Source of the DNA: an uncultured Solirubrobacterales bacterium
Lineage (GTDB): Bacteria > Actinomycetota > Thermoleophilia > Solirubrobacterales > 70-9
Assembly: GCA_963791095.1 (NCBI GenBank)
Contig: CAWBRE010000012.1
Location: 9,370 to 73,369 of the forward strand
Length of the DNA stretch: 64,000 nt
Reading direction: 5' to 3'
Within the stretch, counting starts at the first letter, position 1; each line of letters begins with the position of its first letter. Both the position numbers and the translations under genes were made by a program. The notes under the pieces were generated by a model. It was not told the DNA's origin, did no database searches, and saw nothing but the letters and a program-made list of their open reading frames with translations. Positions 1,520-63,185 of this stretch are shown here, one piece after another.

Positions 1520-3715
1520 ATGCGCCGCTTTGCCACCTGGACCACCGGTCACCGAAAGACGGTGATCTTCAGCTGGATTGCCGCCCTGATCGTCATGGTC
1601 GGCCTTGCCGGCTCCGTGGGCCCCGACTACTCCGAAGAATTCAAACTTCCGACCTCGGACTCGACCGAAGCCTACGAACTGCTCGAAGACAACTTCCCGT
1701 CGCAGTCGGGCGGCACCTCGACGATCGTCTTCAAAGCCGAGGGCGGAGTCGAAACGCCTGCGGTCGAAAAGAAGATGGAAGGCGTCTTCAAGAAGGTCGA
1801 AAAAGAGCCGCACGTGACCGAAGTCGCCAGCCCTTACGGCGGCGGCGAAGGCGCCGGGGCGGTCTCCAAGGACGGCAAGATCGCCTACGCGACGATCCAA
1901 TACGACGTCCAGACCAACGAACTGGACAAAGCAAGCACCGAACGGATCATCGAAACCGCGCAGGGGGCCTCGGAAGGCAGCAAGCTCGACGTGCAGCTGG
2001 GCGGCCAGGCGATCACCGAAGCCGAAGAAGAAAGCGGCGACTCCTCGTTCGGGATCGGCCTGCTGGCCGCGATCGTCATCCTCCTGATCGCCTTCGGCTC
2101 GGTGGTCGCGATGGGGCTGCCGATCATCACCGCGCTGTTCGCGCTCGGGGTCGGGCTCAGCCTGGTCACGCTCGGCACCAACGTCGTCGACACCGCCAAC
2201 TTCGCCCCCGTCCTGGCGGCGATGATCGGGCTCGGGGTCGGGATCGACTACGCGCTCTTCATCCTCACCCGCTTCCGCAACAACCTCGACGAAGGCGACG
2301 AGCCGCAGGAGGCGGCGATCCGGGCCGTCGACACCGCCGGGCGCGCGGTGCTCTTCGCCGGGACGACGGTGATCATCGCCCTGATGGGGATGTTCCTGCT
2401 GGGCATCACCTTCCTCTACGGCGTCGCCGTCGCCGCCGCGCTCTCGGTCCTCTTCACGATGATCTCGGCGCTGACCCTGCTGCCGGCGATGCTGGCCGGG
2501 GTCGGGCACCGGGTGAACAAGTGGAAGATCCCGGGCCTCTCCGGCGGCCAGAACTCGGTCCGCGAAGACACCATGTGGTACCGCTGGAGCCGACTGATCC
2601 AGCGCAATCCGTGGCCCGCCGCGATCCTCTCCGGCGCGCTCCTGCTCTTCCTCTGCGTCCCCACGCTCTCGCTGCGGCTGGGCGTCAACGACGAAGGCAC
2701 CAACCCGAACGGGACGACGACGCGCCAGGCCTACGACCTGCTCGCCGAAGGCTTCGGCCCCGGCTTCAACGGGCCGCTGACGATGGTCGCCTCGCTGCCC
2801 GACCCGGGCGCCGCGGCCGGGATCGAACAGCTCTGCTCGACGCTGAAAAACGAAGAAGGCGTCGCCTCGGTCACCAAGGTCACCTTCAACCGGAAGAAGA
2901 ACGTCGGCCTCTGCCAGGTCAACCCGACCACCTCACCGCAGAGCGCCGACACCACCAGCCTGCTCGATCACATCCGCAACGACGTGATCCCACCGATCGA
3001 AGCGAAGACCGGTGCGGTCATGCACGTCGGCGGCATCACCGCGGTCTTCGAGGACTTCGGCGACGCGATCTCGGAAAAGCTGCCGCTCTTCATCGGCGTG
3101 GTGATCCTGCTCTCGGCGATCCTGCTGATGGCGGTGTTCCGCTCGGTGCTGGTGCCGCTGAAGGCGATCATCATGAACCTGCTGTCGATCGGCGCCGCCT
3201 TCGGGATCATCGTCGCCGTCTTCCAGTGGGGCTGGGGAGGCAGCATCATCGGCGTCGACAACACCGGCCCGATCATCGCCTTCTTCCCCATATTCCTGTT
3301 CTCGATCGTGTTCGGGCTCTCGATGGACTACGAGGTGTTCCTGATGTCCCGCATGCACGAGGAGTGGGAGCGGACGCACGACGCCAACGAATCGGTCACC
3401 CGCGGCCTCGCCCTGACCGGGCGCGTGATCACCGCGGCGGCGGCGATCATGGTCACCGTCTTCGCCTCCTTCCTGCTCGGCGAAGAACGGGTGATCAAGC
3501 TGTTCGGCCTCGGCCTCGCCTCGGCGGTGCTGATCGACGCGGTGGTGATCCGCTCGATCCTCGTCCCGGCGATCATGCAGCTGCTCGGCAAATCCGCCTG
3601 GTGGATGCCCGAGTGGCTCTCCAAGATCCTGCCGAACCTCGCCGTCGATCCGCCCGACAGCGTGCACTCCGCCGACGGCACCGCCAAACCGGCCGTCGCC
3701 ACCGAGAGCGAGTAA
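1520..3715 (+). CDS. MMPL family (RND superfamily) membrane transporter
   Basis: 731-aa ORF. N-terminal TM followed by a periplasmic domain, two blocks of about 6 TM, typical MMPL sequence (GIDYALFILTRFR, MDYEVFLMSRMHEEW). Confidence 0.9.
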   Translation: MRRFATWTTGHRKTVIFSWIAALIVMVGLAGSVGPDYSEEFKLPTSDSTEAYELLEDNFPSQSGGTSTIVFKAEGGVETPAVEKKMEGVFKKVEKEPHVTEVASPYGGGEGAGAVSKDGKIAYATIQYDVQTNELDKASTERIIETAQGASEGSKLDVQLGGQAITEAEEESGDSSFGIGLLAAIVILLIAFGSVVAMGLPIITALFALGVGLSLVTLGTNVVDTANFAPVLAAMIGLGVGIDYALFILTRFRNNLDEGDEPQEAAIRAVDTAGRAVLFAGTTVIIALMGMFLLGITFLYGVAVAAALSVLFTMISALTLLPAMLAGVGHRVNKWKIPGLSGGQNSVREDTMWYRWSRLIQRNPWPAAILSGALLLFLCVPTLSLRLGVNDEGTNPNGTTTRQAYDLLAEGFGPGFNGPLTMVASLPDPGAAAGIEQLCSTLKNEEGVASVTKVTFNRKKNVGLCQVNPTTSPQSADTTSLLDHIRNDVIPPIEAKTGAVMHVGGITAVFEDFGDAISEKLPLFIGVVILLSAILLMAVFRSVLVPLKAIIMNLLSIGAAFGIIVAVFQWGWGGSIIGVDNTGPIIAFFPIFLFSIVFGLSMDYEVFLMSRMHEEWERTHDANESVTRGLALTGRVITAAAAIMVTVFASFLLGEERVIKLFGLGLASAVLIDAVVIRSILVPAIMQLLGKSAWWMPEWLSKILPNLAVDPPDSVHSADGTAKPAVATESE

Positions 3716-3731
3716 GCCTCAGCCCCAGACA

Positions 3732-3862
3732 GCGTCTGCACAAACTCGTCCCAGCGACGAGTTGGTGCAGACGCGTCTGCATTTACCCCTCCAGGGCGGG
3801 GGCAAATGCAGACGCTCAGCGTCGTTGTCTGCATTTACCCCTCAGATACGAGAGGTAAATGC
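3732..3862. repeat. Cluster of three consecutive hairpins (family B, arm GCGTCTGCATTTACCCC) downstream of the MMPL gene
   Basis: 3732-3774: 19-bp stem with 1 mismatch. 3773-3815: 17-bp arms GCGTCTGCATTTACCCC / GGGGCAAATGCAGACGC. 3828-3862: a degenerate third copy. The same arm recurs at 15444-15484. Confidence 0.75.
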
Positions 3863-10516: not shown

Positions 10517-12322
10517 ATGGGCCACCACGACGCGATCCTGATCCTCGTCGCCGGTGTCCTCCTCGCTGCCGGGATCGCCGGCGCGCTGCTCGCCGACCAG
10601 GTGCGGGTCCCCGCCCTGCTGCTGTTCCTCGCCCTCGGGATGCTGGCCGGGTCGGAAGGCATCGGCGACATCCACTTCGCCAACTACGACCTGGCGCGGA
10701 CCCTGGGGACGATCGCGCTGGTGCTGATCCTGTTCGAGGGCGGGATCACCTCCGGCTGGCGGGAGATCCGCCCGGTGCTCGGCACGGCGGCCTCGCTGGC
10801 GACCCTGGGGACGCTGGCGACGGCGCTCCTCGCGGGGGTCGCCTCGAAATGGATCTTCGGGCTCTCCTGGCTGGAAGGGATGATCGTCGGCTCCGCGATC
10901 GCCGCCACCGACTCGGCCGCGATCTTCGCCGTCCTGCGCAACTCGACCCTGGAGAAGCGCCTGGCGCGCTCGCTCGAGGGCGAGTCGGGGATGAACGACC
11001 CGGTCGCCCTGCTGCTGGTGATCGGCTTCATCGAATGGATCCAGCAGCCGAACTACGGCGCCGCCGACATGGTCGGCCTGATCGCGCTGAAGATCGCGGT
11101 CGGGATCGTCGTCGGGCTCCTCCTGGGGAAAGCGGCGGTCTGGATCATGGAACGGATCGAGCTGCCCTCGGACGGGATCTACCCGGTGGCGACGATCGCC
11201 GCCGCGGCGCTCGCCTACGGGATCTCCGAGGTCGCCGGCGGCTCCGGCCTCCTCGCCGTCTACCTGACCGCGCTGGCGCTCGGCTCGGCGCGGATCCCGG
11301 CCAAGCGCAGCGTCATCTCCTTCCACGAGGGGCTCGGCTGGGTCTCCCAGATCGGCCTCTTCATCCTGCTCGGCGTGCTCGTCTTCCCGGGCGACCTGGG
11401 CGGCGTCGCGCTCAAGGGCCTGGCGCTCTCGGCGGTGCTGATCTTCGTCGCCCGCCCGCTCGCCACCTTCCTGGCGACGGCGTTCACCTCCTTCAACTTC
11501 CGCGAGAAGGTGATGCTCGGCTGGGCCGGCCTGCGCGGGGCGACGCCGATCTGGCTGGCGACCTTCCCGGTCGTCGCCGGGGTGCGCAGCGGCGAGGAAG
11601 AGTTCGCGATCGTCTTCTTCGTCGTCGTCACCTCGACCCTGGTGCAGGGGGCGAGCTTCGAGCCGCTGGCCAAGCGCCTGCGGCTGACCACCGACGAGCC
11701 GGCGCTGCCGCGGAGGCTCTTCGAGTCGGGGCGGATCCGCGAGATGGGCGGCGACGTGGTGGCGTTCCGGCTGCCGCCGGGCGCGGTCGCCGCCGGGCAC
11801 CGGGTGCGCGACCTCGAACTGCCGCGCGAGGCGCTGGTCAACGTGATCGTGCGCGACGGCCACGCGATCCCGCCGCGCGGGGCGACCGAACTGCACGAGG
11901 GCGACGAGCTCCACGTGCTGGTCCGCGGCGAGCTGCGCGACCAGGTGGAGAAGCTGACCGAGCGCTGGGTCAAAGGCCCGCTCGGCAAACCGGCACCGCC
12001 GCCACTGCCCCGCCGGGCGGCGTCCCAGGTCTTCTCGGTGCGGCCGCTGCGGGCGGGCGAAGATCCCGAGACGCCCACCGAGATCGACGGCATCCCGGTC
12101 GTCGCCGTGCTCCGCACCCGCAGCGACGACATCGGCGCGATGGCGGCGATGGCCGACGGCCGCTACGCGGTGACGAGCGGCGAGCTCGTCGCGATGGGAG
12201 GACGCCGAGCACTGGCGGGCTGGTGCGAGCGCCGCGCCGAACTCGAAGCGGTGGACGGCGAGACGAAGGCGTGGCTGCAGGAGATCACTGGCGCTCTCAT
12301 CGCCCGCGGCCGCCGGCGCTGA
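10517..12322 (+). CDS. CPA1-type cation/proton antiporter with C-terminal TrkA-C (RCK_C) domain
   Basis: 601 aa. Motifs IAATDSAAIFAVL, ESGMNDPVALLLV and GHRVRDLELPREALVNVIVRDG. Confidence 0.88.
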   Translation: MGHHDAILILVAGVLLAAGIAGALLADQVRVPALLLFLALGMLAGSEGIGDIHFANYDLARTLGTIALVLILFEGGITSGWREIRPVLGTAASLATLGTLATALLAGVASKWIFGLSWLEGMIVGSAIAATDSAAIFAVLRNSTLEKRLARSLEGESGMNDPVALLLVIGFIEWIQQPNYGAADMVGLIALKIAVGIVVGLLLGKAAVWIMERIELPSDGIYPVATIAAAALAYGISEVAGGSGLLAVYLTALALGSARIPAKRSVISFHEGLGWVSQIGLFILLGVLVFPGDLGGVALKGLALSAVLIFVARPLATFLATAFTSFNFREKVMLGWAGLRGATPIWLATFPVVAGVRSGEEEFAIVFFVVVTSTLVQGASFEPLAKRLRLTTDEPALPRRLFESGRIREMGGDVVAFRLPPGAVAAGHRVRDLELPREALVNVIVRDGHAIPPRGATELHEGDELHVLVRGELRDQVEKLTERWVKGPLGKPAPPPLPRRAASQVFSVRPLRAGEDPETPTEIDGIPVVAVLRTRSDDIGAMAAMADGRYAVTSGELVAMGGRRALAGWCERRAELEAVDGETKAWLQEITGALIARGRRR

Positions 12323-12341: not shown

Positions 12342-12411
12342 GGGCGGGCCGGGGTGACCCCTGAACGAACCTCCCCGCTGTTGTGAGAGAAGGGGTCACC
12401 CCGGCCCGCCC
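12342..12411. repeat. Family A hairpin element, copy 1 (inverted orientation): 21-bp perfect stem around a 28-nt core
   Basis: GGGCGGGCCGGGGTGACCCCT..AGGGGTCACCCCGGCCCGCCC. The loop is the reverse complement of the core seen at 13041 and 47378, with a few changes. It lies between convergent gene ends. Confidence 0.8.
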
Positions 12412-12413
12412 CC

Positions 12414-12986
12414 TCAGAGCCCTAGGTCGTGCACCCCGCGCTCGTCCCAGCCCAGGTGGTGCGCTACCTCGTGGCGGACGGTTCGCGTTATCTGGGCGCG
12501 CAGGAGATCCGGATCCCAGCCGAAGTCGCGTTCGAGGGTGTCCTGGTAGATCACGATGTGGTCGCGGAAGTCGTCGCGGGCGACCGTGTCGCCGATGTAG
12601 TGGCCATAGGCGTGGAACTGGTGGCCGAGGTCGGAGATCACGATCGGCACGTCATTGAGGACCTCCTGGAATTCGGCCGGCAGCTCGTCGATCGCCTCGA
12701 CCACCGCTTCTTCGAACTCGCTCGGCTGCAACTGGCCGGACGGCAGCGTGGCGAGTAGTTCGCTGCGTTTCGCGATCCGCCGGAACTCCTCCTCCGGCAT
12801 CTCACCGCGACCGAGAAGCATCGCGACCAGGGCGGTGGCGAGGACGACGGCGACCGCCCCGGCCAGCAGTTGCACGAGGCCGCTGACCCGACCCCAGGTG
12901 AACGGGTCGAGCAGCAAGATCGCCAGCCCGATCAGGAAGCAGACCGTGACGATGATGCGAGCAGTCGAAGAAAGTCGTTCGCTCAT
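12414..12986 (-). CDS. Small membrane-anchored zinc metallopeptidase family protein (HExxH)
   Basis: ORF 12414..13058 trimmed to MSERLSS (ATG 12986), because the upstream extension is encoded by repeat A. TM segment, then TVRHEVAHHLG. Confidence 0.7.
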   Translation of the reverse strand: MSERLSSTARIIVTVCFLIGLAILLLDPFTWGRVSGLVQLLAGAVAVVLATALVAMLLGRGEMPEEEFRRIAKRSELLATLPSGQLQPSEFEEAVVEAIDELPAEFQEVLNDVPIVISDLGHQFHAYGHYIGDTVARDDFRDHIVIYQDTLERDFGWDPDLLRAQITRTVRHEVAHHLGWDERGVHDLGL

Positions 12987-13022
12987 ATGACGAGGGTAGC
13001 CCGGGGACAGATCTGGGGGTGA

Positions 13023-13087
13023 CCCTTGCGAAGGACCCGGGGGTGACCCTTCCCTCACGAACTGCGGGGAGGTTCGTCCAGGGTCAC
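13023..13087. repeat. Family A hairpin element, copy 2: 18-bp perfect stem around the 29-nt core TCCCTCACGAACTGCGGGGAGGTTCGTCC
   Basis: GGACCCGGGGGTGACCCT..AGGGTCACCCCCGGGTCC. The core is identical to the copy at 47378-47406. A partial duplicate of the left arm lies at 13006-13017. Confidence 0.85.
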
Positions 13088-13112
13088 CCCCGGGTCCCTC
13101 TCGACCGCGCGC

Positions 13113-13800
13113 TCAGGAGGCGCCGGCGGCTGAGGCGATCGCTTGATAGGCAGCGGCCGGGTCGTCGGCTCCGAAAACAGCGCTGCCTGCCACGAAGAGG
13201 GAGGCGCCGGCTGCGCCGATCGGGCCTGCCGTCTCCGTGTCGATGCCGCCGTCGACCTCGATCATCGGCGGTGCCGACCAGAGGCTTCAGGCGCTCTACC
13301 TTGTCCGGCGACGACGTGATGAAGGACTGGCCTCCCCAACCCGGGTTGACGGTCATGCAGAGGACGAGGTCGGCGAGGTCGCGGAGCTCGGCGAGGGCCT
13401 CGACCGGGGTGCCCGGATTGATCGCGATGCCGGCGCAGCAGCCTAGTTCGCGGATCGCCGCCAGGGTGCGGTTGGCGTGCGGGGTCGCCTCGGCGTGGAA
13501 GGTGATCGAGTCGGCGCCCGCCTTGGCGAACTCCTCGATCTGGCGCTCCGGCGTCTCGATCATCATGTGCACGTCGATCGCCCCGCCCGCCGCGTGGACG
13601 ACATCGGCGACCGCGCCCGCGACCAGCGGCCCGATCGTGATCGGCGGGACGAAGTGCCCGTCCATCACGTCGACGTGGATCACCCGCGCCCCCGCCGCCA
13701 TCACCTCCTCGACCTGCGAGCCGAGCTTGGCGAAGTCGGCGGAAAGGATCGACGGCGCCACCCGGCGCTCGGCGATCAGCTCGCGAAAACGGTCGCTCAT
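13113..13800 (-). CDS. rpe: Ribulose-phosphate 3-epimerase; frame broken by one extra base near 13263
   Basis: [54 protein letters not shown] reads in one frame. The expected [49 protein letters not shown] reads in the +1 frame. Confidence 0.9.
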
Positions 13801-15443: not shown

Positions 15444-15484
15444 CCGTCTGCATTTACCCCCGCCCTCGAGGGGTAAATGCAGAC
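15444..15484. repeat. Family B hairpin: CGTCTGCATTTACCCC-N9-GGGGTAAATGCAGACG (16-bp perfect stem)
   Basis: Read directly. Lies between fmt and rsmB. Same arm as at 3773-3815. Confidence 0.8.
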
Positions 15485-15510
15485 GCCCGCGCCGAGGCAA
15501 GCCCGGTGCG

Positions 15511-20080: not shown

Positions 20081-20132
20081 CGAGCCATTCCGTATGCGGC
20101 TCGGGCAGGCTGAAGCCGCATACGGAATGGCT
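20081..20132. repeat. Perfect 20-bp stem / 12-nt loop hairpin 3' of the decayed DUF559 gene
   Basis: GAGCCATTCCGTATGCGGCT-N12-AGCCGCATACGGAATGGCTC. Flanked by degenerate GTGCGGGAC-type tandem repeats. Confidence 0.75.
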
Positions 20133-20205
20133 CTGAGGCCGGCGGAGGGATGCGCGGGAGTGCGGGAGTGCGGGGCGCGATCTGGCCCTGGACGGTGCCG
20201 ACGGT

Positions 20206-23843: not shown

Positions 23844-24498
23844 CGGTGCTCCACCTGAGTGACCAAGGCCGCGTTCGCGGGCGAGCTTGACTACGCGGCC
23901 GACTACCTCTTCCAGAGCTGAAGCCGGTGGTGTCGAGCTCGACCGCGTCCTCGGCGGCGCGCAGGGCGCCGTGCTCGCGCTCGGTGTCGCGGGCGTCGCG
24001 CCGGCGTTGGGCCGCCAACACCGAGGCCTCGTGCTCGCCGGTCTCCGCCGCGCGGCGCCGCGCCCGCTCCTCGTCGGAGGCGGTGAGGAAGATCTTCAGC
24101 GGCGAGTCGGGGCTGACCACGGTGCCGATGTCGCGGCCCTCGGCGACGTAGTCGCCCGTCTCGATCAGCTGTCGCTGCCGGGCCACCATCGCCTCGCGCA
24201 CCGCCGGGTGCACGGAGACGCGGGAGGCGTCGGCGGTCACCTCGGGGCGGCGGATCGCCTCGGAGACGTCGCGCCCGCCGAGCAGCACCCGGCGACCGTC
24301 GAAGCCGATCTCGAGCTTCTCCGCCAGCGGGCCGAGCGCGGCACCGTCGTCGGCGTCGACCCCGGCCTCCTGCGCCGCCAGGGCGACGCTCCGGTACATC
24401 GCCCCCGAGTCGAGGTAGGTGAAGCCGAGCTCGGCCGCGACGGCGCGGGCCACGGTTGACTTGCCGGCCCCGGCGGGGCCGTCGATCGCGATCACCAT
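23844..24498 (-). CDS. cmk: Cytidylate kinase; frame broken by one extra base near 23936. The corrected frame runs into der.
   Basis: [38 protein letters not shown] reads in one frame. [41 protein letters not shown] reads in the +1 frame, which is the der frame. The run-on ORF 22312..24498 is an artefact. Confidence 0.85.
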
Positions 24499-29963: not shown

Positions 29964-30034
29964 GCGCCGCGCATCATTCCAGAGCGCAATGGGCGACGGC
30001 CCCGAGCCGAGACGGGGGCGAGTTCCCTTGCGCG

Positions 30035-30067
30035 GTGACTTATCCACCTGTGAGGGGGATAAGTCAC
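30035..30067. repeat. Family D hairpin, copy 1: GTGACTTATCC-ACCTGTGAGGG-GGATAAGTCAC
   Basis: 11-bp perfect stem. The loop/inner-arm motif CCCCC-N2-ACAGGTGGATAAG (reverse strand) recurs at 63066-63090. Confidence 0.7.
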
Positions 30068-31034
30068 CACGCAAGAGCTCAGGCCTCGCTGGGCCGACTC
30101 GCCGGGCGCCAGGAAGGCGTTGTGTCGAGGCGCCAGGTGGAAGCCCTCGGCATCTCGGCCCGCCAGGTGGATGGCATGGTGCGGGAAGGTCGCCTACTTC
30201 CCGTGTTTCGCGGCGCCCTTGCCTTGGGGCATGCGGCCATCGGGCCGCGGGCACGGATGCGGGCGGCGGGACTCGCCTGTCCAGGGTCGGTGATCTCGCA
30301 TCGGAGCGCGGCCGCATTGCTCGGGATCGGCAAGGTGGCGCCGGTCGTGGTCGACCTGATTCCTCTTCAGCAGCGCGGCCGGGGCATCGACGGGATCAAG
30401 GCTCACCGGGTTCCCTTCCCGAACCGAGCGGAATGGGGCTACGTTGGTGGGATCCCGGTCACGAGTGTGGCGCGGACGATCGTCGACCTGGCGGGGGTGC
30501 AAGGCGAAAGGCAACTGCGGGAATCGGTCGAGCGGGCGGCGACGGAGCGAATGCTGGACGTCGCCGGGATCGACGCGATCCTCGCCAATGGTCCGAAGCG
30601 AAGGGGAGCCCCGTGCCTTCGGCGGATCCTGGCCGACTGGCGGCCCGTCGCCGAAGCCGCGAAGTACGCCACCTTCCGCAGCCTCTTCGAGGCGAAGCTC
30701 CTGCCCTTGGTCGCCGCCACCGGACTGTCGCTCCCCCGATTCAACGCCCCGGTCCGCACGGCGGAGCGAACCCTCGAGGTCGACCTCCTCTGGGAGCACG
30801 CCCGCTTCGTCGTCGAAGCCGACAGCCGCAAGCACCACGGCATCGAGGTCGCCTTCGAGCGTGACCATCGCCGAGCCCGCGAACTGATTGCCGCCGGCTA
30901 TAGCCGTCCTCGGCGTCACCTGGCGCGAAGCGGAAACGAAGCCGCCCGCCGTCTTCGCCGTCATCCGCCAGGAGCTCGAGAAACGCGGCCCGCGGTCACC
31001 GGCCATCCGGACCCGGACTCGAGCCATCCCCTGA
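30035..31034 (+). CDS. DUF559 / AbiEi-like N-domain endonuclease-family protein; frame broken by one extra base near 30903
   Basis: ..GRLAGRQEGVVSRRQVEALGI..GIPVTSVARTIVDLAG..EVDLLWEHARFVVEADSRKHHG..RDHRRARELIAAGY reads in one frame. AVLGVTWREAETKPPAVFAVIRQELEKRGPRSPAIRTRTRAIP* reads in the +1 frame. The true start is uncertain, because the 5' end is the family D hairpin. Confidence 0.75.
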
Positions 31035-31112
31035 CGAGCCGTCCCCGACCGAGCCCCAGCGTCCCCTCACCGGCGCCAGAGCGACCCAGCGTCCCCCAGC
31101 GGCGCGGCGAAG

Positions 31113-31166
31113 CGCGGCCCCACTTTGCCCACCTAAGTGCCAGTGAGGTGGGCAAAGTGGGGCCGC
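31113..31166. repeat. Perfect 21-bp stem / 12-nt loop hairpin 3' of the second DUF559 gene
   Basis: GCGGCCCCACTTTGCCCACCT-N12-AGGTGGGCAAAGTGGGGCCGC, about 80 nt after the corrected stop. Confidence 0.75.
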
Positions 31167-31280
31167 TCGTCATGCCAGCGCCGGTCCCTTCTCCTCCAGC
31201 CCCTGGTCATACGCCGCCCACCGCAACTCCGCGCCACCTCGCCGACGCTTAGCCCCCTCGCGTCCCTTCCTCGCCAGCCC

Positions 31281-44343: not shown

Positions 44344-44492
44344 CGCGCCTCAGCTCTCAGTGGAAGGAGTCGCCATCGACCCCAGCGTATTCCCTGGGCG
44401 CGCTCGCCGGACCCCTCGGGAGTTCCTCACCAGGAACTCCCCGCGAAGCGGGCCTGGAGAGGGACTCCCGAGGGGTCCCCCACCAGCCCGAC
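44344..44492 (-). promoter_or_regulatory. Structured 149-nt gcvT leader (three-way-junction-like; weak resemblance to a single glycine riboswitch aptamer)
   Basis: 13-bp long-range stem ACCCCTCGGGAGT/ACTCCCGAGGGGT enclosing two hairpins. Elements GGGGAG-hairpin-CCGAGGGG-hairpin-CAGG are ordered like a glycine aptamer, but the conserved GAAGGAGCAA core is not matched. Confidence 0.3.
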
Positions 44493-45883: not shown

Positions 45884-46441
45884 CTAATTGGCGGGAGGAA
45901 GTTCGTGATCTTCGCCCCCCACCGCCGGGTGGGTCGGCGCCGTCACGTCTACATAACTGAGCAACGTCACAGAAGGATCGGCCAGCACCTCCGCCGCCGA
46001 TTCCCACTTGCGCGCGACTTCGCGATCGTCGCCGAAGCGGATTTCGATCCCGGTGGCCGTCTCGAGGGCGACCCCGCTCTTGCCGTACTTGGCGCTCGCG
46101 ATGTAGCGGCGGATCGCGGCCGGAGCGGCGGCGATCACGTGCACCTCTTCGAGCACGTGGCCCTTCACCTGGTCGCCCTTCGGCCGTTTCTTCAGCGCCA
46201 GCACGACCAGGTGCTTCTGCTGCTTGCCGCCGCCGCCCTTGTTCGAGTCGGGGGCGGTGCGGGTGCCGAGGATCCTGCCGTCATCGCCGACCATGACCAC
46301 GGTCTTGCCCTCGCCGATCTGGGCCACCGGCGTCGTCGGCTGCGCCTCGGCGGTTGGGGTCGAGGAGCCGCGCAGGGCGAACCAGTAGACGGCCACGGCG
46401 GCGACCGCGACGACCGCGACGGCGATCAGCGCGCGCCTCAT
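45884..46441 (-). CDS. ftsQ: Short FtsQ/DivIB-like cell division protein
   Basis: MRRALIAVAVVAVAAVAVYWF (TM) plus a domain of about 150 aa. ATGA overlap with the murB stop. Assignment rests mainly on its position between murB and ftsZ. Confidence 0.55.
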   Translation of the reverse strand: MRRALIAVAVVAVAAVAVYWFALRGSSTPTAEAQPTTPVAQIGEGKTVVMVGDDGRILGTRTAPDSNKGGGGKQQKHLVVLALKKRPKGDQVKGHVLEEVHVIAAAPAAIRRYIASAKYGKSGVALETATGIEIRFGDDREVARKWESAAEVLADPSVTLLSYVDVTAPTHPAVGGEDHELPPAN

Positions 46442-47358
46442 GCGTCCTCCCAACCGGGGACGACGACGTCGCCCAGCACGTGCACCTCGGGCTCGAGCTC
46501 GACGCCGAACCGCTCCTTCACCCGGCGCCGCCCCTCGGCCATCAGCGCGAGCACGTCGGCGGTGGTCGCCTCGCCGGTGTTCTCGACGAAGTTCGCGTGC
46601 TTCTCGGAGAAGCGGGCGCCGCCGTGGGTGAGGCCGCGGCAGCCGGCCGCCTCCAGCAACTGCCCGGCAGAGCGGCCCTCGGCGCGCGCGTCCTCGGGGT
46701 TCTTGAAGGTGGAGCCGAAGGTCTTGATCCCGGAGGGCTGGGCCTCTTTGCGGCGGCCGCGCATCGAGGCGAGCGTGGCGCGCACCTCGTCGGGGTCGCT
46801 GGGCTCGAGCGCGAAGGAGGCGCGGGAGACCACTTCGCCCGCGGCCAGGTTGGAGTTGCGATAGGCGAAGCCGAAGGCGTCCGGGGTGCGCCGCTCGGTG
46901 CCGGCCGCGGTCGTCACCTCGACCCACTCCAGCACCTCGGCCAACTGCCCGCCGTAGGCGTTGGCGTTCATCCGTACCGCGCCACCGACGGTGCCGGGGA
47001 TGTTGACCCCGAACTCGAGCCCCGCCAGGCCCCAGCCCGGCGTCTTGCCGGCGACCGAGGGCAGCCGGGCGCCACCGCCGCAGCGCAGGTGCGTGCCATC
47101 GCGCTCGACCTCGGTCAACGCACCGTCCAACTTCATCGCCAGTCCTCGGAATCCGTCATCCGCTACCAGGAGGTTCGAGCCCGAGCCGACCACTCCTACC
47201 GGGACGGACGCCTTTTCTGCCCAGGCCAGCAGGGCGGCGAGGTCGTCTTGGGACGCAGGGCGGGCGAAGAAGTCGGCGGGGCCGCCGGTGCGGACCGTGG
47301 TGAGGCGGGCCAGGGGGTAGTCGCGCTCGACGCCGGGTGGGGGTTCGTTGTGGGAGGA
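46438..47358 (-). CDS. murB: UDP-N-acetylenolpyruvoylglucosamine reductase (C-terminal half of the fused 805-aa murC-murB ORF)
   Basis: ..YPLARLTTVRTGGPADFF..GSGSNLLVADDGFRG..GGAVRMNANAYGG..FKNP. No stop and no ATG separate it from murC. Confidence 0.85.
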   Translation of the reverse strand, partial: SSHNEPPPGVERDYPLARLTTVRTGGPADFFARPASQDDLAALLAWAEKASVPVGVVGSGSNLLVADDGFRGLAMKLDGALTEVERDGTHLRCGGGARLPSVAGKTPGWGLAGLEFGVNIPGTVGGAVRMNANAYGGQLAEVLEWVEVTTAAGTERRTPDAFGFAYRNSNLAAGEVVSRASFALEPSDPDEVRATLASMRGRRKEAQPSGIKTFGSTFKNPEDARAEGRSAGQLLEAAGCRGLTHGGARFSEKHANFVENTGEATTADVLALMAEGRRRVKERFGVELEPEVHVLGDVVVPGWEDA

Positions 47359-47425
47359 GGGGGACGAGGGGGACCCTTCCCTCACGAACTGCGGGGAGGT
47401 TCGTCCAGGGTCCCCCTCGTCCCCC
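47359..47425. repeat. Family A hairpin element, copy 3, forming the in-frame linker between murC and murB
   Basis: 19-bp perfect stem GGGGGACGAGGGGGACCCT/AGGGTCCCCCTCGTCCCCC around the identical 29-nt core. Translated as KGDEGDPGRTSPQFVREGSPSSP. Confidence 0.85.
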
Positions 47426-48855
47426 TTCACGGAAGCCTCGCCCGGGTTGGGGGATACCAGGGCCTCCCCCAGCTTGAAGATGTCTCCGGCGCCGATGGTG
47501 ACCAGGATGGAGCCCTCGGGAACGGATTCCAGGCGGCGCTTCAGGAACGCTTCGGCGCGGGCGGCGGTTGGGAGCCAGGCGACTGGTTTGCCCTTGCCTC
47601 GATCCGCGGCGGCTCGGGCTACGTCTAGGCCGCTGACGCCGGCCAGGGGGCCGATCGGCTCCTCGCGGGCGGGATAGACGTCGAGGACGGCGATCTCGTC
47701 GGCGAGGGCGAGGGCGGCGCCGAACTCGGCGGCGAAGACCTTGGTGCGCGAGTAGAGGTGGGGCTGGAAGACGGCGAGGAGGCGCGGCGGGGCCAGGCCG
47801 CGCAGGGCCGAGAGGGCGGCGCGGACCTCGGTCGGGTGGTGGGCGTAGTCGTCATATATGCGGACCCCCCCGCGCTCGCCCTTCACCTCAAGCCGGCGGC
47901 GGACGCCGCGGAAGTCGGCGAGCGCCGCGGCGGCGCGGTCGAGGTCGAACCCGGCGGCCTCGAGCGCCGCCAGCGCCGCGCGCGCGTTGAGCACGTTGTG
48001 AGCGCCGGGAACCGCGAGGTCGAGCGAGGCGGTCGGCGGCTTGGCGGCGGAGAACTCGGCGAGGGTCGGCGGAGCGTCCGGCGGAGCCACGGAGCCTCCG
48101 GTCGCGGCCACCGTCGGTCCGCCGACTAGCGCCTCGCGGACCTCCTCGACCGCGCCGCCCTCGCGGCTCGGGGCCGGCAGCACCGCCACGCGGGACTTGG
48201 CGGCGAAGCCGACGAAGGCCTCGATCAGCGGCTCGAGCGAGCCCCATTTCGAGTGGTGGTCCATCTCGACGTTGGTGATCACGGCGACCTCGGGGTCGAG
48301 GCGGAGGAAGCTGCCGTCGGACTCGTCGGCCTCGGCCACCACCCAGTCGCTCGCTCCCCAGCCTGCGTTGGCCGGGGCGCCGTCGGGACCGAGCCCGGGG
48401 ACCTCGCCGCCGACGAAGAAGGCCGGGTCCTCGCCCAGTCCGCGGAGGGCCCAGACCGCCATCGCGGTCGTCGTCGTCTTGCCGTGGGTGCCGGCGATCG
48501 CGATCAACCGCTTCTCCGCGCAGAGCTCGGCCAGCAGCTCGCCGCGGTGGATCACGGTGAGGCCGCGCTCATGGGCGAGGGCCAGCTCCGGGTTCTCGGC
48601 GGCGATCGCGGTCGAGACCACCACCTCCGCCCCCTCGGGCAGGTTGGCGGCGTCGTGGCCGATCGTCGGCTCGAGCCCCGCCGCCCGCAGACGCTCCATA
48701 TAAGAGGACTCGCTGCGGTCCGATCCGGTCACCTCGGCGCCGAGCCCGGCGCAGACCACCGCCAGCCCGCTCATCCCCGCCCCGCCGATGCCGATGAAGT
48801 GCAGCCGGCGCCCGCTCCAGTCCGTGCCCGTCACGCTTGGGCCCTGGCGCTGCAA
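47426..48855 (-). CDS. murC: UDP-N-acetylmuramate--L-alanine ligase (N-terminal half of the fused ORF)
   Basis: HFIGIGGAGMSGLA, IAGTHGKTTTTAM, DYAHHPTE, TIGAGDI. TTG 48855 or GTG about 48834 as start. Confidence 0.9.
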
Positions 48856-48862
48856 GGAGGTT

Positions 48863-48952
48863 GTAGACCTTGGTCGCCCACAGGGTTACCAAGCTCTACG
48901 ACCCCGGAGGGCTTCTGCCTTTTGTCGCCCACAGGGCGACAAAAGGCAGAAG
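48863..48952. repeat. Two tandem hairpins (family E) with different stems but the same loop motif CGCCCACAGGG, between murG and murC
   Basis: 48863-48899: 12-bp stem with 1 mismatch. 48912-48952: 18-19-bp perfect stem CTTCTGCCTTTTGTCGCC/GGCGACAAAAGGCAGAAG. Confidence 0.75.
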
Positions 48953-55396: not shown

Positions 55397-56895
55397 GCCG
55401 GGCTGCCCAGCTTGCGCAGCTCCTCGCGGGCGACCTCGCGGTCGTCGAAGGGGATCTTCCGCCCGCCCTCGAACTCCTGTCCCTGCTCATGACCCTTGCC
55501 GGCGATCACCACCGTGTCGCCGCGCCGGGCGCGGCCCAGCGCCAGTGCGATCGCGGCCTGGCGGTCGACCTCGACGATCAGCTCGGCATCGCCTTCGCGC
55601 GCCCCGGCGGCCACTTCGGCGACGATCGCCTCGGGGTCCTCGGAGCGCGGGTTGTCGGAGGTGACGATGGCGAGATCGGAGAGGACGCCGCCCGCCCGTC
55701 CCATCAGCGGTCGCTTGGCCTTGTCGCGGTCGCCGCCGGCGCCGAAGACGGCGATCAGCCTGCCCTCGGTGAGCCGGCGTGCCGCGCGCAGCACGTTCTC
55801 GACCGAGTCGGGGGTGTGGGCGTAGTCGACGAGGACGGCGAAGCCCTGGCCCTCGTCGACCGGCTCGAAGCGTCCCGGCACCCGCGCCGCCGCCGCCAGC
55901 CCCCGCGCCGCAGCCTCCGGCTCGACCCCGAGCGCCGTCGCCGCCGCGAACGCCCCGAGCGCGTTCGCCACGTTGAAGTGCCCCGGCATCCCCGTCCCCA
56001 CCCGCACCTCGGTGTCGATGGGCCGAAAACTCAAGCCCTTATGGTCCGGTTTTCGGCCCATCAACACGGTGAACTGGGCGCCCCCCGCGTCGAACTCGAC
56101 GTCGATGGCGCGGTAGTCGGCGTCGGCGCCTTCGGCGGAGAAGGTCAGGCACTCGAATTCCTCCGCCAGGCGCCGGCCGTAGGGATCGTCGACGTTGACG
56201 ATCCGCACCCCCGGCTCGGCTTCGAACAACTTGCGCTTGGCGACGAAGTAGTCCTCCATGTCGGCATGGAAGTCGAGGTGGTCCTGGGTCAGGTTGGTGA
56301 AGACGGCGGCGTCGAAATGGATCGCGTCGGCGCGGTGCAACACCATCGCGTGCGAAGAGACCTCCATCGCGCAGGCCTTGTCGCCACCCTCGAGCATCCG
56401 GCGGAACGTCTCCTGCAGGTCGATCGCCTCCGGGGTGGTCCGTTCGACCGGCTCCTCCTCCCCGCCGACCACCTGCTTGACCGTGCCCATCAGCCCGGTC
56501 TGGATCCCCGCCGCTTCGAGGATCTCGCGGGCCAGGTAGGCGGTCGTCGTCTTGCCGTTGGTGCCGGTCACCCCGACCACCTTCAGCTCCGCCGTCGGGT
56601 CGCCCCAGAAGGCGGACGCGAACGGCGCCATCGCCGCCCGCGCGCTCGGCACCACCACCTGCGGCACCGCGACCTCCAGCTCCCGCTCGACGACCAGCGC
56701 CACCGCCCCGGCCTCGACCACCTGCGCCGCAAACTCGTGCCCATCGCGCTTTTCCCCGACCACGCAGAAGAAAAGCGTCCCCGGACCCGCCTTGCGCGAG
56801 TCATAGGCGAGGTCGGCGATCTCGACCGTGGGATCGCCCAGGATTCGGGTCCGGTCCGCGCCCGAAGACGCTTTGAGGAGATCTTCCAGCTTCAC
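55393..56895 (-). CDS. murE: UDP-N-acetylmuramoyl-L-alanyl-D-glutamate--2,6-diaminopimelate ligase
   Basis: C-terminal 500 aa of ORF 55393..57519, from GTG 56895 (VKLEDLLK). GVTGTNGKTTT, DYAHTPD, GAGGDRD, DNPRSEDP. Confidence 0.92.
   Translation of the reverse strand: MKLEDLLKASSGADRTRILGDPTVEIADLAYDSRKAGPGTLFFCVVGEKRDGHEFAAQVVEAGAVALVVERELEVAVPQVVVPSARAAMAPFASAFWGDPTAELKVVGVTGTNGKTTTAYLAREILEAAGIQTGLMGTVKQVVGGEEEPVERTTPEAIDLQETFRRMLEGGDKACAMEVSSHAMVLHRADAIHFDAAVFTNLTQDHLDFHADMEDYFVAKRKLFEAEPGVRIVNVDDPYGRRLAEEFECLTFSAEGADADYRAIDVEFDAGGAQFTVLMGRKPDHKGLSFRPIDTEVRVGTGMPGHFNVANALGAFAAATALGVEPEAAARGLAAAARVPGRFEPVDEGQGFAVLVDYAHTPDSVENVLRAARRLTEGRLIAVFGAGGDRDKAKRPLMGRAGGVLSDLAIVTSDNPRSEDPEAIVAEVAAGAREGDAELIVEVDRQAAIALALGRARRGDTVVIAGKGHEQGQEFEGGRKIPFDDREVAREELRKLGSPA
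56017..56062. repeat. About 45-bp palindromic element inserted in frame in murE (14-bp perfect arms, 18-nt loop)
   Basis: GATGGGCCGAAAAC-TCAAGCCCTTATGGTCCG-GTTTTCGGCCCATC. Lower GC than its flanks. Translated as MGRKPDHKGLSFRPI, in a segment where MurE proteins normally have no such residues (from memory of E. coli and M. tuberculosis MurE). Confidence 0.7.
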
Positions 56896-62273: not shown

Positions 62274-63185
62274 TCAGAAACCTGAGAGCAGGGTCCCCGC
62301 GTTGGCGATCAGTCCGGCGGCGATCATCAGCATCACCGAGGGGACGAGGACCAGGGCGACGACCAGCTGGATCTTCGGCGCGGCGCGGGCGGCCCGCTCT
62401 TCGACCGCGCGGCGACCGTCGCGACGGAGCGAGGACGCCTGGCGGCGGAGCTGGTCGGCAAGCGGCGAGCCGAAGCGCCGCGAACGCTCGATCGAGGCGA
62501 CGAGCGTCGCCAGCTCACTGCCCGGGACGCGGGCGCGCAGCGCGGCGAGGGCGGCGGTGAGCGAGGCGCCGCAGGAGAGCTCGGCGACCGCGATCCGCAT
62601 CTCCTCGGCCAGCGGTCCCTCGCCCGCCCGCGCCAGCTGGGCCAGCCCGTCGGCCGGGCCACGGCCGGAGGCGACGCTGACCGCGAGCAGGTCGAGGGCG
62701 TCGGGCAGCGCGGCGACCAGGCGGCGGCGCCGGCGGCGCGCCTCCCGCTCGAGCAACGCGTCGGGGAGGAAGAAGCCGGCGGCCGGGAGCCCGAGCGCCA
62801 CAGCGAACGCGAGCCGCCCCGGCGCCGCGGGCGCGGCGGCGACCGCGAGGATCGCCCCGAGGGTGAGCCCGGCGAATTTCGCCAGCAGTAGCGCCGGGAG
62901 CGGGAAACGCGCTTGCAGGCCGGAGCGACGCAGGCGCTCCGGGAGGTTCAGCCAGAGCGCGACGCGGGCCCAGCGCGGGTCGAGGCGCGCCCCACCCTCG
63001 CCCGGCGAGCCCCGTCGACCGCCGCCTTCGCCGCCCGACTCGGCCGGATCCGTTGCGCGGTTCGAAATCCCCCGTACAGGTGGATAAGGAACCGCGCGAC
63101 GCTGCGCCCTCGCCACCAACACCTCGCGGCCGGCGGCGAGGGCAAGCAGCGTCGCCAGCGCGAAGAGAAGGCCGACCGGGGTCAC
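62274..63185 (-). CDS. tadC: Tad pilus inner-membrane platform protein (T2SS F-domain), TadC-like
   Basis: 303 aa. LPDALDLLAVSVASG..SLTAALAAL..RRFGSPLADQLRRQA, C-terminal TMs. Contains the family D hairpin in its N-terminal loop. Confidence 0.7.
   Translation of the reverse strand: MTPVGLLFALATLLALAAGREVLVARAQRRAVPYPPVRGISNRATDPAESGGEGGGRRGSPGEGGARLDPRWARVALWLNLPERLRRSGLQARFPLPALLLAKFAGLTLGAILAVAAAPAAPGRLAFAVALGLPAAGFFLPDALLEREARRRRRRLVAALPDALDLLAVSVASGRGPADGLAQLARAGEGPLAEEMRIAVAELSCGASLTAALAALRARVPGSELATLVASIERSRRFGSPLADQLRRQASSLRRDGRRAVEERAARAAPKIQLVVALVLVPSVMLMIAAGLIANAGTLLSGF
63055..63097. repeat. Family D hairpin, copy 2, inside the tadC ORF
   Basis: GCGCGGTTC-GAAATCCCCCGTACAGGTGGATAAG-GAACCGCGC. 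It encodes PYPPVRGIS, the same peptide string (YPPVRGIS) as the copy at 30035. Confidence 0.7.

Follow-up and report, generated by a model that had tools for sequence, protein, structure and literature searches.

A clade-restricted family of hairpin repeats with a constant centre and freely varying, complementary arms in uncultured Solirubrobacterales

Three hairpins with a common core

The window considered here is a stretch of 64,000 nucleotides from an uncultured Solirubrobacterales bacterium (contig CAWBRE010000012.1, positions 9,370 to 73,369). Direct reading and an inverted-repeat scan of these 64 kb have revealed exactly three copies of a long hairpin with a common core, designated family A. 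The 29-nt core, TCNCTCACGAACNGCGGGGAGGTTCGYYC, is flanked by complementary arms of about 20 bp whose sequences are unrelated between copies. An initial annotation of this DNA had described three copies with a near-constant core and with stems that differ and yet remain complementary, and this description is borne out by both approaches. The copies and the features around them are as follows.

12342..12411, core on the - strand: copy 1; arms 12342-12362 and 12391-12411 (21 bp, 100% complementary), core 12363-12390
13030..13100, core on the + strand: copy 2; arms 13030-13050 and 13080-13100 (21 nt, 95% complementary, perfect across 13033-13097), core 13051-13079
47358..47426, core on the + strand: copy 3; arms 47358-47377 and 47407-47426 (20 bp, 100% complementary), core 47378-47406
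10517..12322, + strand: Na+/H+ exchanger-TrkA_C gene; stop codon TGA at 12320-12322, 19 nt upstream of copy 1
12414..12986, - strand: zincin-like gene; stop at 12414-12416, 2 nt from copy 1, and start at 12984-12986, 43 nt from copy 2
13113..13800, - strand: rpe (ribulose-phosphate 3-epimerase); its true stop codon, TGA, at 13113-13115, separated from copy 2 by 12 nt
46438..48855, - strand: MurC-MurB open reading frame of 805 aa, MurC being N-terminal and MurB C-terminal, joined via copy 3
13015..13027, + strand: 13-nt direct repeat, GGGGGTGACCCTT, which repeats the inner part of the 5' arm of copy 2 and the first core bases

The identical centre GACCCT-...-AGGGTC that had been noticed in copies 2 and 3 is exact over the central 41 nt (GACCCTTCCCTCACGAACTGCGGGGAGGTTCGTCCAGGGTC). 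The core of copy 1 is a variant with a 1-nt deletion (CAC-AACAGCGGGGAGGTTCGT) and two substitutions relative to the other two. A 22-nt part of the core has two matches in the window, against an expectation of 0.00 derived from 100 shuffles. Exactly the same three copies are recovered by a covariance model based on 120 copies, at 83-96 bits (84.7, 83.3 and 96.4 bits for copies 1, 2 and 3); the next-best match, at 29 bits, is a generic hairpin, and the other long hairpins of the window score at most 29 bits. All three copies fold at -52 to -60 kcal/mol on either strand, with z-scores of -4.8 to -7.9 against shuffles.

Copy 1 occupies a 91-nt gap separating convergent genes, and copy 2 sits in a spacer of 127 nt that extends from the rpe stop to where the next - strand gene starts. 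Copy 3 lies inside the fused murC-murB reading frame on the - strand, in frame, where it encodes ..KGDEGDPGRTSPQFVREGSPSSP... Orthologs of these copies exist at loci of relatives, which are labelled here with L-numbers (8-kb stretches, including 80 murB loci). The ortholog of copy 1 (L027:895-981) has the same deletion and two compensated arm changes, and the ortholog of copy 2 in L105 has unrelated distal arms. The 13-nt repeat next to copy 2 may be the remnant of a truncated family A copy.

The rpe gene is split over two frames in the window by an apparent frameshift near 13260-13270. One frame holds residues 1-178, which match relatives, and another the conserved C-terminus (...AAGAS*); the gene is uninterrupted in the close relative L116. 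The split represents either an assembly indel or a pseudogene.

Size, architecture and arm pairing of the family

The distribution of family A was assessed by an exact-core scan of 185,579 species genomes with the query CACNAACNGCGGGGAGGTTCGT, a procedure that favours intact cores. At least 115 loci were found, all of them in metagenome-assembled genomes (MAGs) of Solirubrobacterales/Actinomycetota, and at least 21 different assemblies carry the family among the first 80 matches listed. The possibility raised in the initial annotation, that only three copies exist and that relatives lack them, does not hold. The family is dense where it occurs, at about 33-47 copies per Mb. It is absent from 80 rpe loci (414 kb), about 30 of which belong to other Solirubrobacterales, and from 71 murB loci with 71-77% MurB identity. 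A phage origin was rejected after 2.9 million viral contigs gave 0 matches. Rfam has no counterpart: searches at the gathering threshold for the window and at E <= 1 for three loci gave only sub-threshold, generic hits to animal miRNA precursors. A literature search found no published mention of such a repeat in Solirubrobacterales.

Across 123 matches the core is common to all, and about 20 nt on each side vary from copy to copy while staying complementary. Pairing by position from the core is 87-100% at the inner 19 positions, 74% at the 20th and at most 44% beyond, so that the stem is sharply defined at about 20 bp. The element as a whole measures about 69-75 bp and consists of a 29-nt asymmetric core and two 20-bp arms. 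The core consensus is TCNCTC-ACGAAC-NGCGGGGAG-GTTCGT-YC, which includes a 6-bp mini-stem of its own. The 5' arm is G-rich and the arms end in GACCC(T/C) beside the core; apart from this bias, the GACCC(Y) motif and mutual Watson-Crick complementarity, no constraint on the arms is apparent. In the same loci, the covariance model finds 17 further copies with 1-3 core changes and 6 further intact ones, implying that about a quarter of copies have the exact core. The arms of copies with changed cores are still mostly paired at 19-20 of 20 positions.

The initial annotation had proposed covariation-like support for a selected hairpin, and the larger data set strengthens this proposal. In an alignment of 120 distinct copies, with shuffles and slid registers as controls, 96.6% of arm cells pair, against 71.5% in shuffles. 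Both sides have changed in 19 of the 20 outer pairs, and the covariation score is 0.643, compared with 0.161 in shuffles and 0.08-0.14 in slid registers. The inner 6-bp stem ACGAAC/GTTCGT is invariant in the alignment and thus uninformative as to whether it pairs. Between non-orthologous copies, the arms are as distant from each other as random G-rich sequences, with a mode of 9 differences in 16 positions.

Orthologous copies add a view in time. Over 92 pairs of orthologous copies and 18 inner stem positions, 72.3% of positions are identical, 19.2% are compensated, 6.5% are changed on one side and 1.9% differ otherwise. Arm pairs thus differ at 19.2% (compensated) plus 8.4% (uncompensated), versus 4.4% per site in the 29-nt core. 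Change in the arms is about five times as fast as in the core, and yet they remain Watson-Crick paired; the hairpin is under real constraint.

The kind of pairing that is kept bears on the level at which it is maintained. A generic structured RNA is expected to show mainly transition-type switches and to tolerate G.U on the transcribed strand. Neither is observed in family A: compensated switches at orthologous loci are of transversion type in 55 cases and of transition type in 52, and on the transcribed strand G.U and A.C occur 12 times each, without an excess of wobble. G.T pairs make up about 28% of the non-Watson-Crick cells. Since transversion-type switches lack a wobble intermediate and G.U is not in excess, the pairing looks DNA-like rather than RNA-like.

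Placement at genes, gain and copying

Flanking frames were assigned by a self-trained codon score, with orthologous loci counted once. This score was preferred over open reading frame (ORF) calls, because stop-free GC-rich hairpins extend ORFs and lead to over-calling of copies as lying inside genes. The unique loci comprise 16 convergent, 32 tandem and 3 divergent gaps. Family A shuns promoter gaps and adjoins gene 3' ends. In core-'+' copies, a stop codon ends 1-38 nt ahead of the stem. The orientation of the core relative to genes is not fixed: at the tandem loci the G-rich core strand is in gene sense in 19 cases and the C-rich strand in 13. The uniform transcribed orientation assumed in the initial annotation applies to copies 2 and 3 and fails for the family; copy 1, between its convergent genes, is ambiguous in this respect. 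No T- or A-tract was found beside the stem, T reaching at most 29% at each of the 15 positions after it and A being similarly low before it. The element thus has the hairpin of an intrinsic (Rho-independent) terminator and lacks the U-tract.

About 30% of copies (37) are crossed by a flanking reading frame. In the C-rich sense the frame encodes ..DPERTSPQFVREGSP.. in 17 copies and ..DPRTNLPAVREGGG.. in 6, and in the G-rich sense ..DPSLTNSGEVRSGS.. in 10. The frames used are the stop-free ones; the core has TGA in two frames in the C-rich sense and no stop codon in the G-rich sense. An in-frame copy is also found inside a GNAT gene in three genomes (L055, L062 and L092). Directly 5' of the G-rich-sense arm, the motif TTGCG(A/G)GG occurs in 17 copies (about 14%), with none on the right and 1.9 expected; examples are window positions 13026-13033 and the loci L018, L031, L041, L083, L097. 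This motif gives family A a polarity beyond that of the core.

The junction of copy 3 was followed in 80 murB loci, the nine closest relatives having 83-89% MurB identity. The element is found between murC and murB in eight of these nine; L201 and all of the 71 more distant relatives have an empty junction. At the empty junctions that were read (L201 and L205-L215), murC and murB are mostly joined by overlapping stop and start codons, e.g., GTGA or ATGACTGA. In six genomes (the window, L197, L200, L202, L203 and L204) the MurC-MurB frame runs on through the element without a stop, and a fusion protein would carry the linker GDPGRTSPQFVREGSP. In L196, L198 and L199 the upstream frame stops at a TGA where arm and core meet, and murB could start from a GTG within the core. 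The core of L200 is inverted relative to that of L204 between almost identical arms, and the frame is still open. As a separate observation, the element is absent from L209 (about 1400-1500), where the murC frame nevertheless continues into murB without a stop and a different, AT-richer inverted repeat (GGTTCCTTTTGTACCTGTGGAGCACATAAGGAACC) lies nearby.

Filled and empty states have been recognised at five orthologous sites, murC/murB included, the further contrasts being found by BLAST of flanks among the loci. L054 is filled and L046 and L001 are empty; L050, L066, L096 and L113 are filled and L030 is empty; L081 and L049 are filled and the window is empty at 23849-23864, where two - strand genes overlap by an ATGA stop/start; and an intragenic hyuA site shows the same contrast. 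In the two legible cases (L054 versus L001/L046 and L050 versus L030, each between different species) the insert is the hairpin alone. In one of them CGAGG stands immediately 5' of the insertion and is already present in the empty site; the same motif occurs just 5' of several copies. CGAG is found on both sides in 13 of 119 copies, and flank logos anchored on the stem base are flat. The idea that the arms derive from the target site was rejected, as they are absent from empty sites.

Arms are also shared between places. The non-orthologous loci L066 (hyuA/B) and L014 (murC/B) have identical arms, including a common mismatch, and the recent insertion in L054 has 15 nt of arm in common with L031 of the same genome. 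Arms common to non-orthologous loci imply that arms travel with the core. Truncated half-copies lie upstream of full copies in L030 and L109.

At the site in L105 (about 3554-3734) that is orthologous to copy 1, two copies of a different palindrome (GTTCGCAGTAATCCGCGGATAGCGCGGAGAACTGCGAAC) stand in place of family A. The convergent gap of copy 1 has been colonised by different repeats.

Other inverted repeats occur in the window. A hairpin at 44409-44478 has 26-bp arms and a centre, ..CCAGGAACTCCCCGCGAAGCGGGCCTGGAGAG.., loosely like the C-rich strand of family A; it was rejected as a sister family, as its core has no exact match in genome contigs and it scores 26.9 bits, as a generic hairpin only. 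A second hairpin family at 3732-3815 and 15445-15485 has conserved arms (CGTCTGCATTTACCCC and GGGGTAAATGCAGACG) and a tandem partner (GCGTCTGCACAAACTCGTC and GACGAGTTGGTGCAGACGC); it is REP-like (see below) and has no relation to family A. At 30027-30075, 31109-31171 and 63051-63101 there are long inverted repeats, richer in AT and partly related in their arms (..GCGCGGT..TTATCCACC..), which may be a third repeat family or protein-binding sites. Isolated perfect or near-perfect hairpins of 19-20 bp at 20082-20133, 48912-48952 and 56012-56067, with loops of 3-18 nt and a GC content below that of their surroundings, may be terminators or operators.

Nature of the element and what it means

[quoted passage not shown] A REP/MITE-type element had been one of the options listed in the initial annotation, and it is the one that fits best. 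Whole hairpins, arms and core together, are gained at gene boundaries and in permissive linkers and then passed on vertically over long periods. The core can flip between its arms, and copies landing in genes or at their ends are read through in frame. We infer that the folded hairpin, as single-stranded DNA or as a cruciform, is handled by a putative trans-acting enzyme. It would recognise the sequence of the core but only the shape of the arms, in the manner of HUH/Y1 transposases with REPs and IS200/IS605 ends or of integron integrases with attC. Arm complementarity would be kept at the DNA level and not by selection on RNA; candidates for its upkeep are templated correction or recombination between the arms, and selection for the ability to form a hairpin. 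Effects of the very stable 3' hairpins on transcripts would be a by-product or a secondary exaptation.

The likeness to REPs and REPINs, with their RAYT proteins of HUH Y1 type, and to the terminal inverted repeats of TIRYT genes (PMC3733652) is broad. In both cases abundant GC-rich palindromes form lineage-specific families, lie mostly outside genes at gene 3' ends and occasionally within genes, show no obvious target duplication and are probably recognised as single-stranded DNA. A GGGGWSAS motif has been reported for the repeats around some TIRYT tyrosine-transposase genes (PMC3733652), and the arm-proximal GGGGTGAC of family A fits it, which is a lead only. The differences are substantial as well. 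REPs measure 20-40 bp, with conserved stems of 6-9 bp and a GTAG/CGTC tag (PMC3733652), whereas family A has 69-75 bp, 20-bp stems free in sequence and a conserved centre. Its copies stand singly and not in doublets or clusters of bacterial interspersed mosaic elements (BIMEs). The arms, differing at a modal 9 of 16 positions, do not form a short palindrome with a conserved stem, and of 119 copies, 24 have a GTAG no more than 34 nt from the left end and 16 have one on the right, against 8 expected, at no fixed offset; this surplus is largely due to TAG stop codons. No RAYT gene was found beside the copies by tblastn of the 8-kb loci with IS200 TnpA and E. coli RAYT queries.

Similar reservations apply to MITEs. 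Like the Correia element and other MITEs (PMC10969869), family A is small, non-coding, bounded by terminal inverted repeats, present or absent between relatives and invertible, and forms RNA hairpins in transcripts. The presence/absence at orthologous sites is what a mobile repeat should show. However, MITE inverted repeats are conserved, bound by a transposase and flanked by target duplications, whereas those of family A are variable, retaining only the G-rich bias and GACCC(Y), and no duplication was seen in the two legible insertions. A parent insertion sequence (IS) with matching ends was not found among the loci examined, nor was a recurrent neighbour gene. RPEs (Ogata et al. 2000, as summarised in PMC10969869) are palindromes lying in frame in unrelated protein genes, to which they add a peptide while leaving the protein intact, and family A likewise inserts with preservation of the frame. 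RPEs have about 100-150 bp, are AT-rich, are conserved over their full length and occur in Rickettsia only, whereas family A is mostly intergenic and has no sequence relationship to them; the resemblance is an analogy and not membership.

Two further systems share the use of a hairpin. Integron attC sites are recombination substrates defined by hairpin structure, with variable paired regions and a strand asymmetry due to unpaired bases. Their conserved boxes (R''/R', GTT) lie at the hairpin base and the tip is variable, which is the reverse of family A, and they occur in cassette arrays beside an integrase, whereas family A is scattered singly at unrelated genes; family A is therefore not an attC site. 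The subterminal hairpins of IS200/IS605 elements are alike in that they insert without duplication, perhaps on the 3' side of a short favoured sequence, which for family A may be CGAGG, and in a hairpin-dependent single-strand mechanism. They differ as short conserved hairpins flanking tnpA/tnpB, family A being one long hairpin without cargo.

Several observations weigh against a mobile element. Within one genome the arms look random and the cores are nearly identical, a pattern not accounted for by a simple recent burst. At orthologous loci of different species the arms are still perfect and the core is conserved, although the flanking coding DNA is only 75-95% identical. Such long persistence is unexpected for a purely selfish, decaying element and points to a function for the host or to an active homogenising mechanism; intact arms and cores at orthologous loci are equally expected under host function. 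No clear target-site duplication and no fixed terminal tag were seen among 119 copies and in the two legible insertions, where different species were compared, and mobility is deduced from comparisons between species. Clustering of 807 ORFs of the loci showed no gene family that recurs beside the copies, only orthologous housekeeping groups, and tblastn of about 1.9 Mb of loci with IS200 TnpA and E. coli RAYT sequences found no transposase or autonomous parent.

The persistence of the arms gives some weight to a host-useful RNA hairpin at transcript 3' ends, acting as a U-tract-independent bidirectional terminator, as a block to 3' exonucleases or as an RNase III site at which operon transcripts are cut into segments, the repeats being retained for this use. 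This explanation is rather unlikely, and it is compatible with a mobile origin. It accommodates the stop codons 1-38 nt before the stem in core-'+' copies, the 16 convergent against 3 divergent unique loci, the great stability on either strand (-52 to -60 kcal/mol) and arms still paired at orthologous loci despite long divergence, and it has a precedent in Correia inverted-repeat hairpins cut by RNase III (PMC10969869). A stem-only function does not need a conserved 29-nt core, however, and a T/U tract is missing from both sides. Some 30% of copies fall within reading frames, the essential murC-murB included, where a strong hairpin or terminator should be harmful, and yet the arms there are paired at 20 of 20 positions. 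The lack of preference for wobble on the transcribed strand and the half of compensated switches that are of transversion type also argue against selection on RNA.

A double-stranded DNA or cruciform site for a putative host protein, involved in nucleoid organisation, supercoiling or replication, is improbable. Such a protein would read ACGAAC-N9-GTTCGT together with GCGGGGAG, as REPs and BIMEs are bound by gyrase and IHF. Use in either orientation, strictly Watson-Crick, DNA-like pairing and a core conserved in situ (4.4% per site) while the arms change would all be expected. The core contains a 6-N9-6 inverted repeat whose half-sites, CGAAC and GTTCG, are those of the Gram-positive and actinobacterial LexA box. 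The LexA (Cheo/SOS) box is CGAAC-N4-GTTCG, whereas the half-sites in the core are 9 nt apart, and membership was rejected on this spacing. Sister clades share the housekeeping machinery and yet lack the family in the rpe and murB loci examined, and gain/loss polymorphism, truncated copies and intragenic insertions are left unexplained unless mobility is added.

The proposal of the initial annotation that the inner 6-bp stem presents a C-rich, anti-Shine-Dalgarno-like loop (CUCCCCGCA), taken here as a cis- or trans-acting regulatory RNA in the manner of 6C or RoxS/RsaE, is very improbable: copies 2 and 3 are transcribed with the C-rich strand as RNA and CCUCCCC is complementary to GGGGAGG, but both orientations are about equally used, the core is inverted at the orthologous murC/murB site of L200, CCUCCC of the C-rich strand is paired with GAGGGA in the minimum-energy fold and not displayed, G.U and A.C are balanced at 12 each, about 30% of copies lie in frames and many are translated, no promoter or terminator (no T-tract) delimits a small RNA, and Rfam has no match, so that family A does not belong with these RNAs. 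A k-turn formed by the GA / GAGNGA internal loop of the C-rich strand was considered and dropped, as its bulge would be 4 nt and its orientation relative to transcription is not conserved.

Within the reading of family A as a mobile DNA element, a more specific and quite speculative version can be put forward. The hairpins might be substrates of an undescribed, structure-guided system of single-strand DNA recombination or transposition that reads an apical module of 29 fixed nucleotides and a 20-bp stem whose sequence is free, with arms actively copied from one another and a core that can be flipped. Arm-to-arm copying, if true, would account for Watson-Crick pairing being perfect, for the transversion-type 'compensation' and for the roughly fivefold faster evolution of the arms. 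Core flips would in that case alter the stop-bearing frames, and copies at gene ends could be heritable switches that yield either separate proteins or fused or extended ones, as at murC-murB.

Family A is an addition to the interspersed-repeat families, from a soil lineage that is uncultured and has hardly been studied. Its design reverses the usual rule of REPs and MITEs, the centre being constant and the inverted repeats free but strictly complementary, and it offers a natural test case in which selection for structure, arm-to-arm correction of DNA and recognition by shape can be set against each other. It also illustrates that covariation statistics alone can falsely suggest a functional RNA, and gene callers and assemblers are prone to confusion by such hairpins in high-GC MAGs. 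The responsible enzyme, if found, could be a new hairpin-specific DNA tool. For the organisms that carry the family, essential genes have been remodelled by it, with MurC and MurB fused or given a stop codon and peptides inserted into enzymes.

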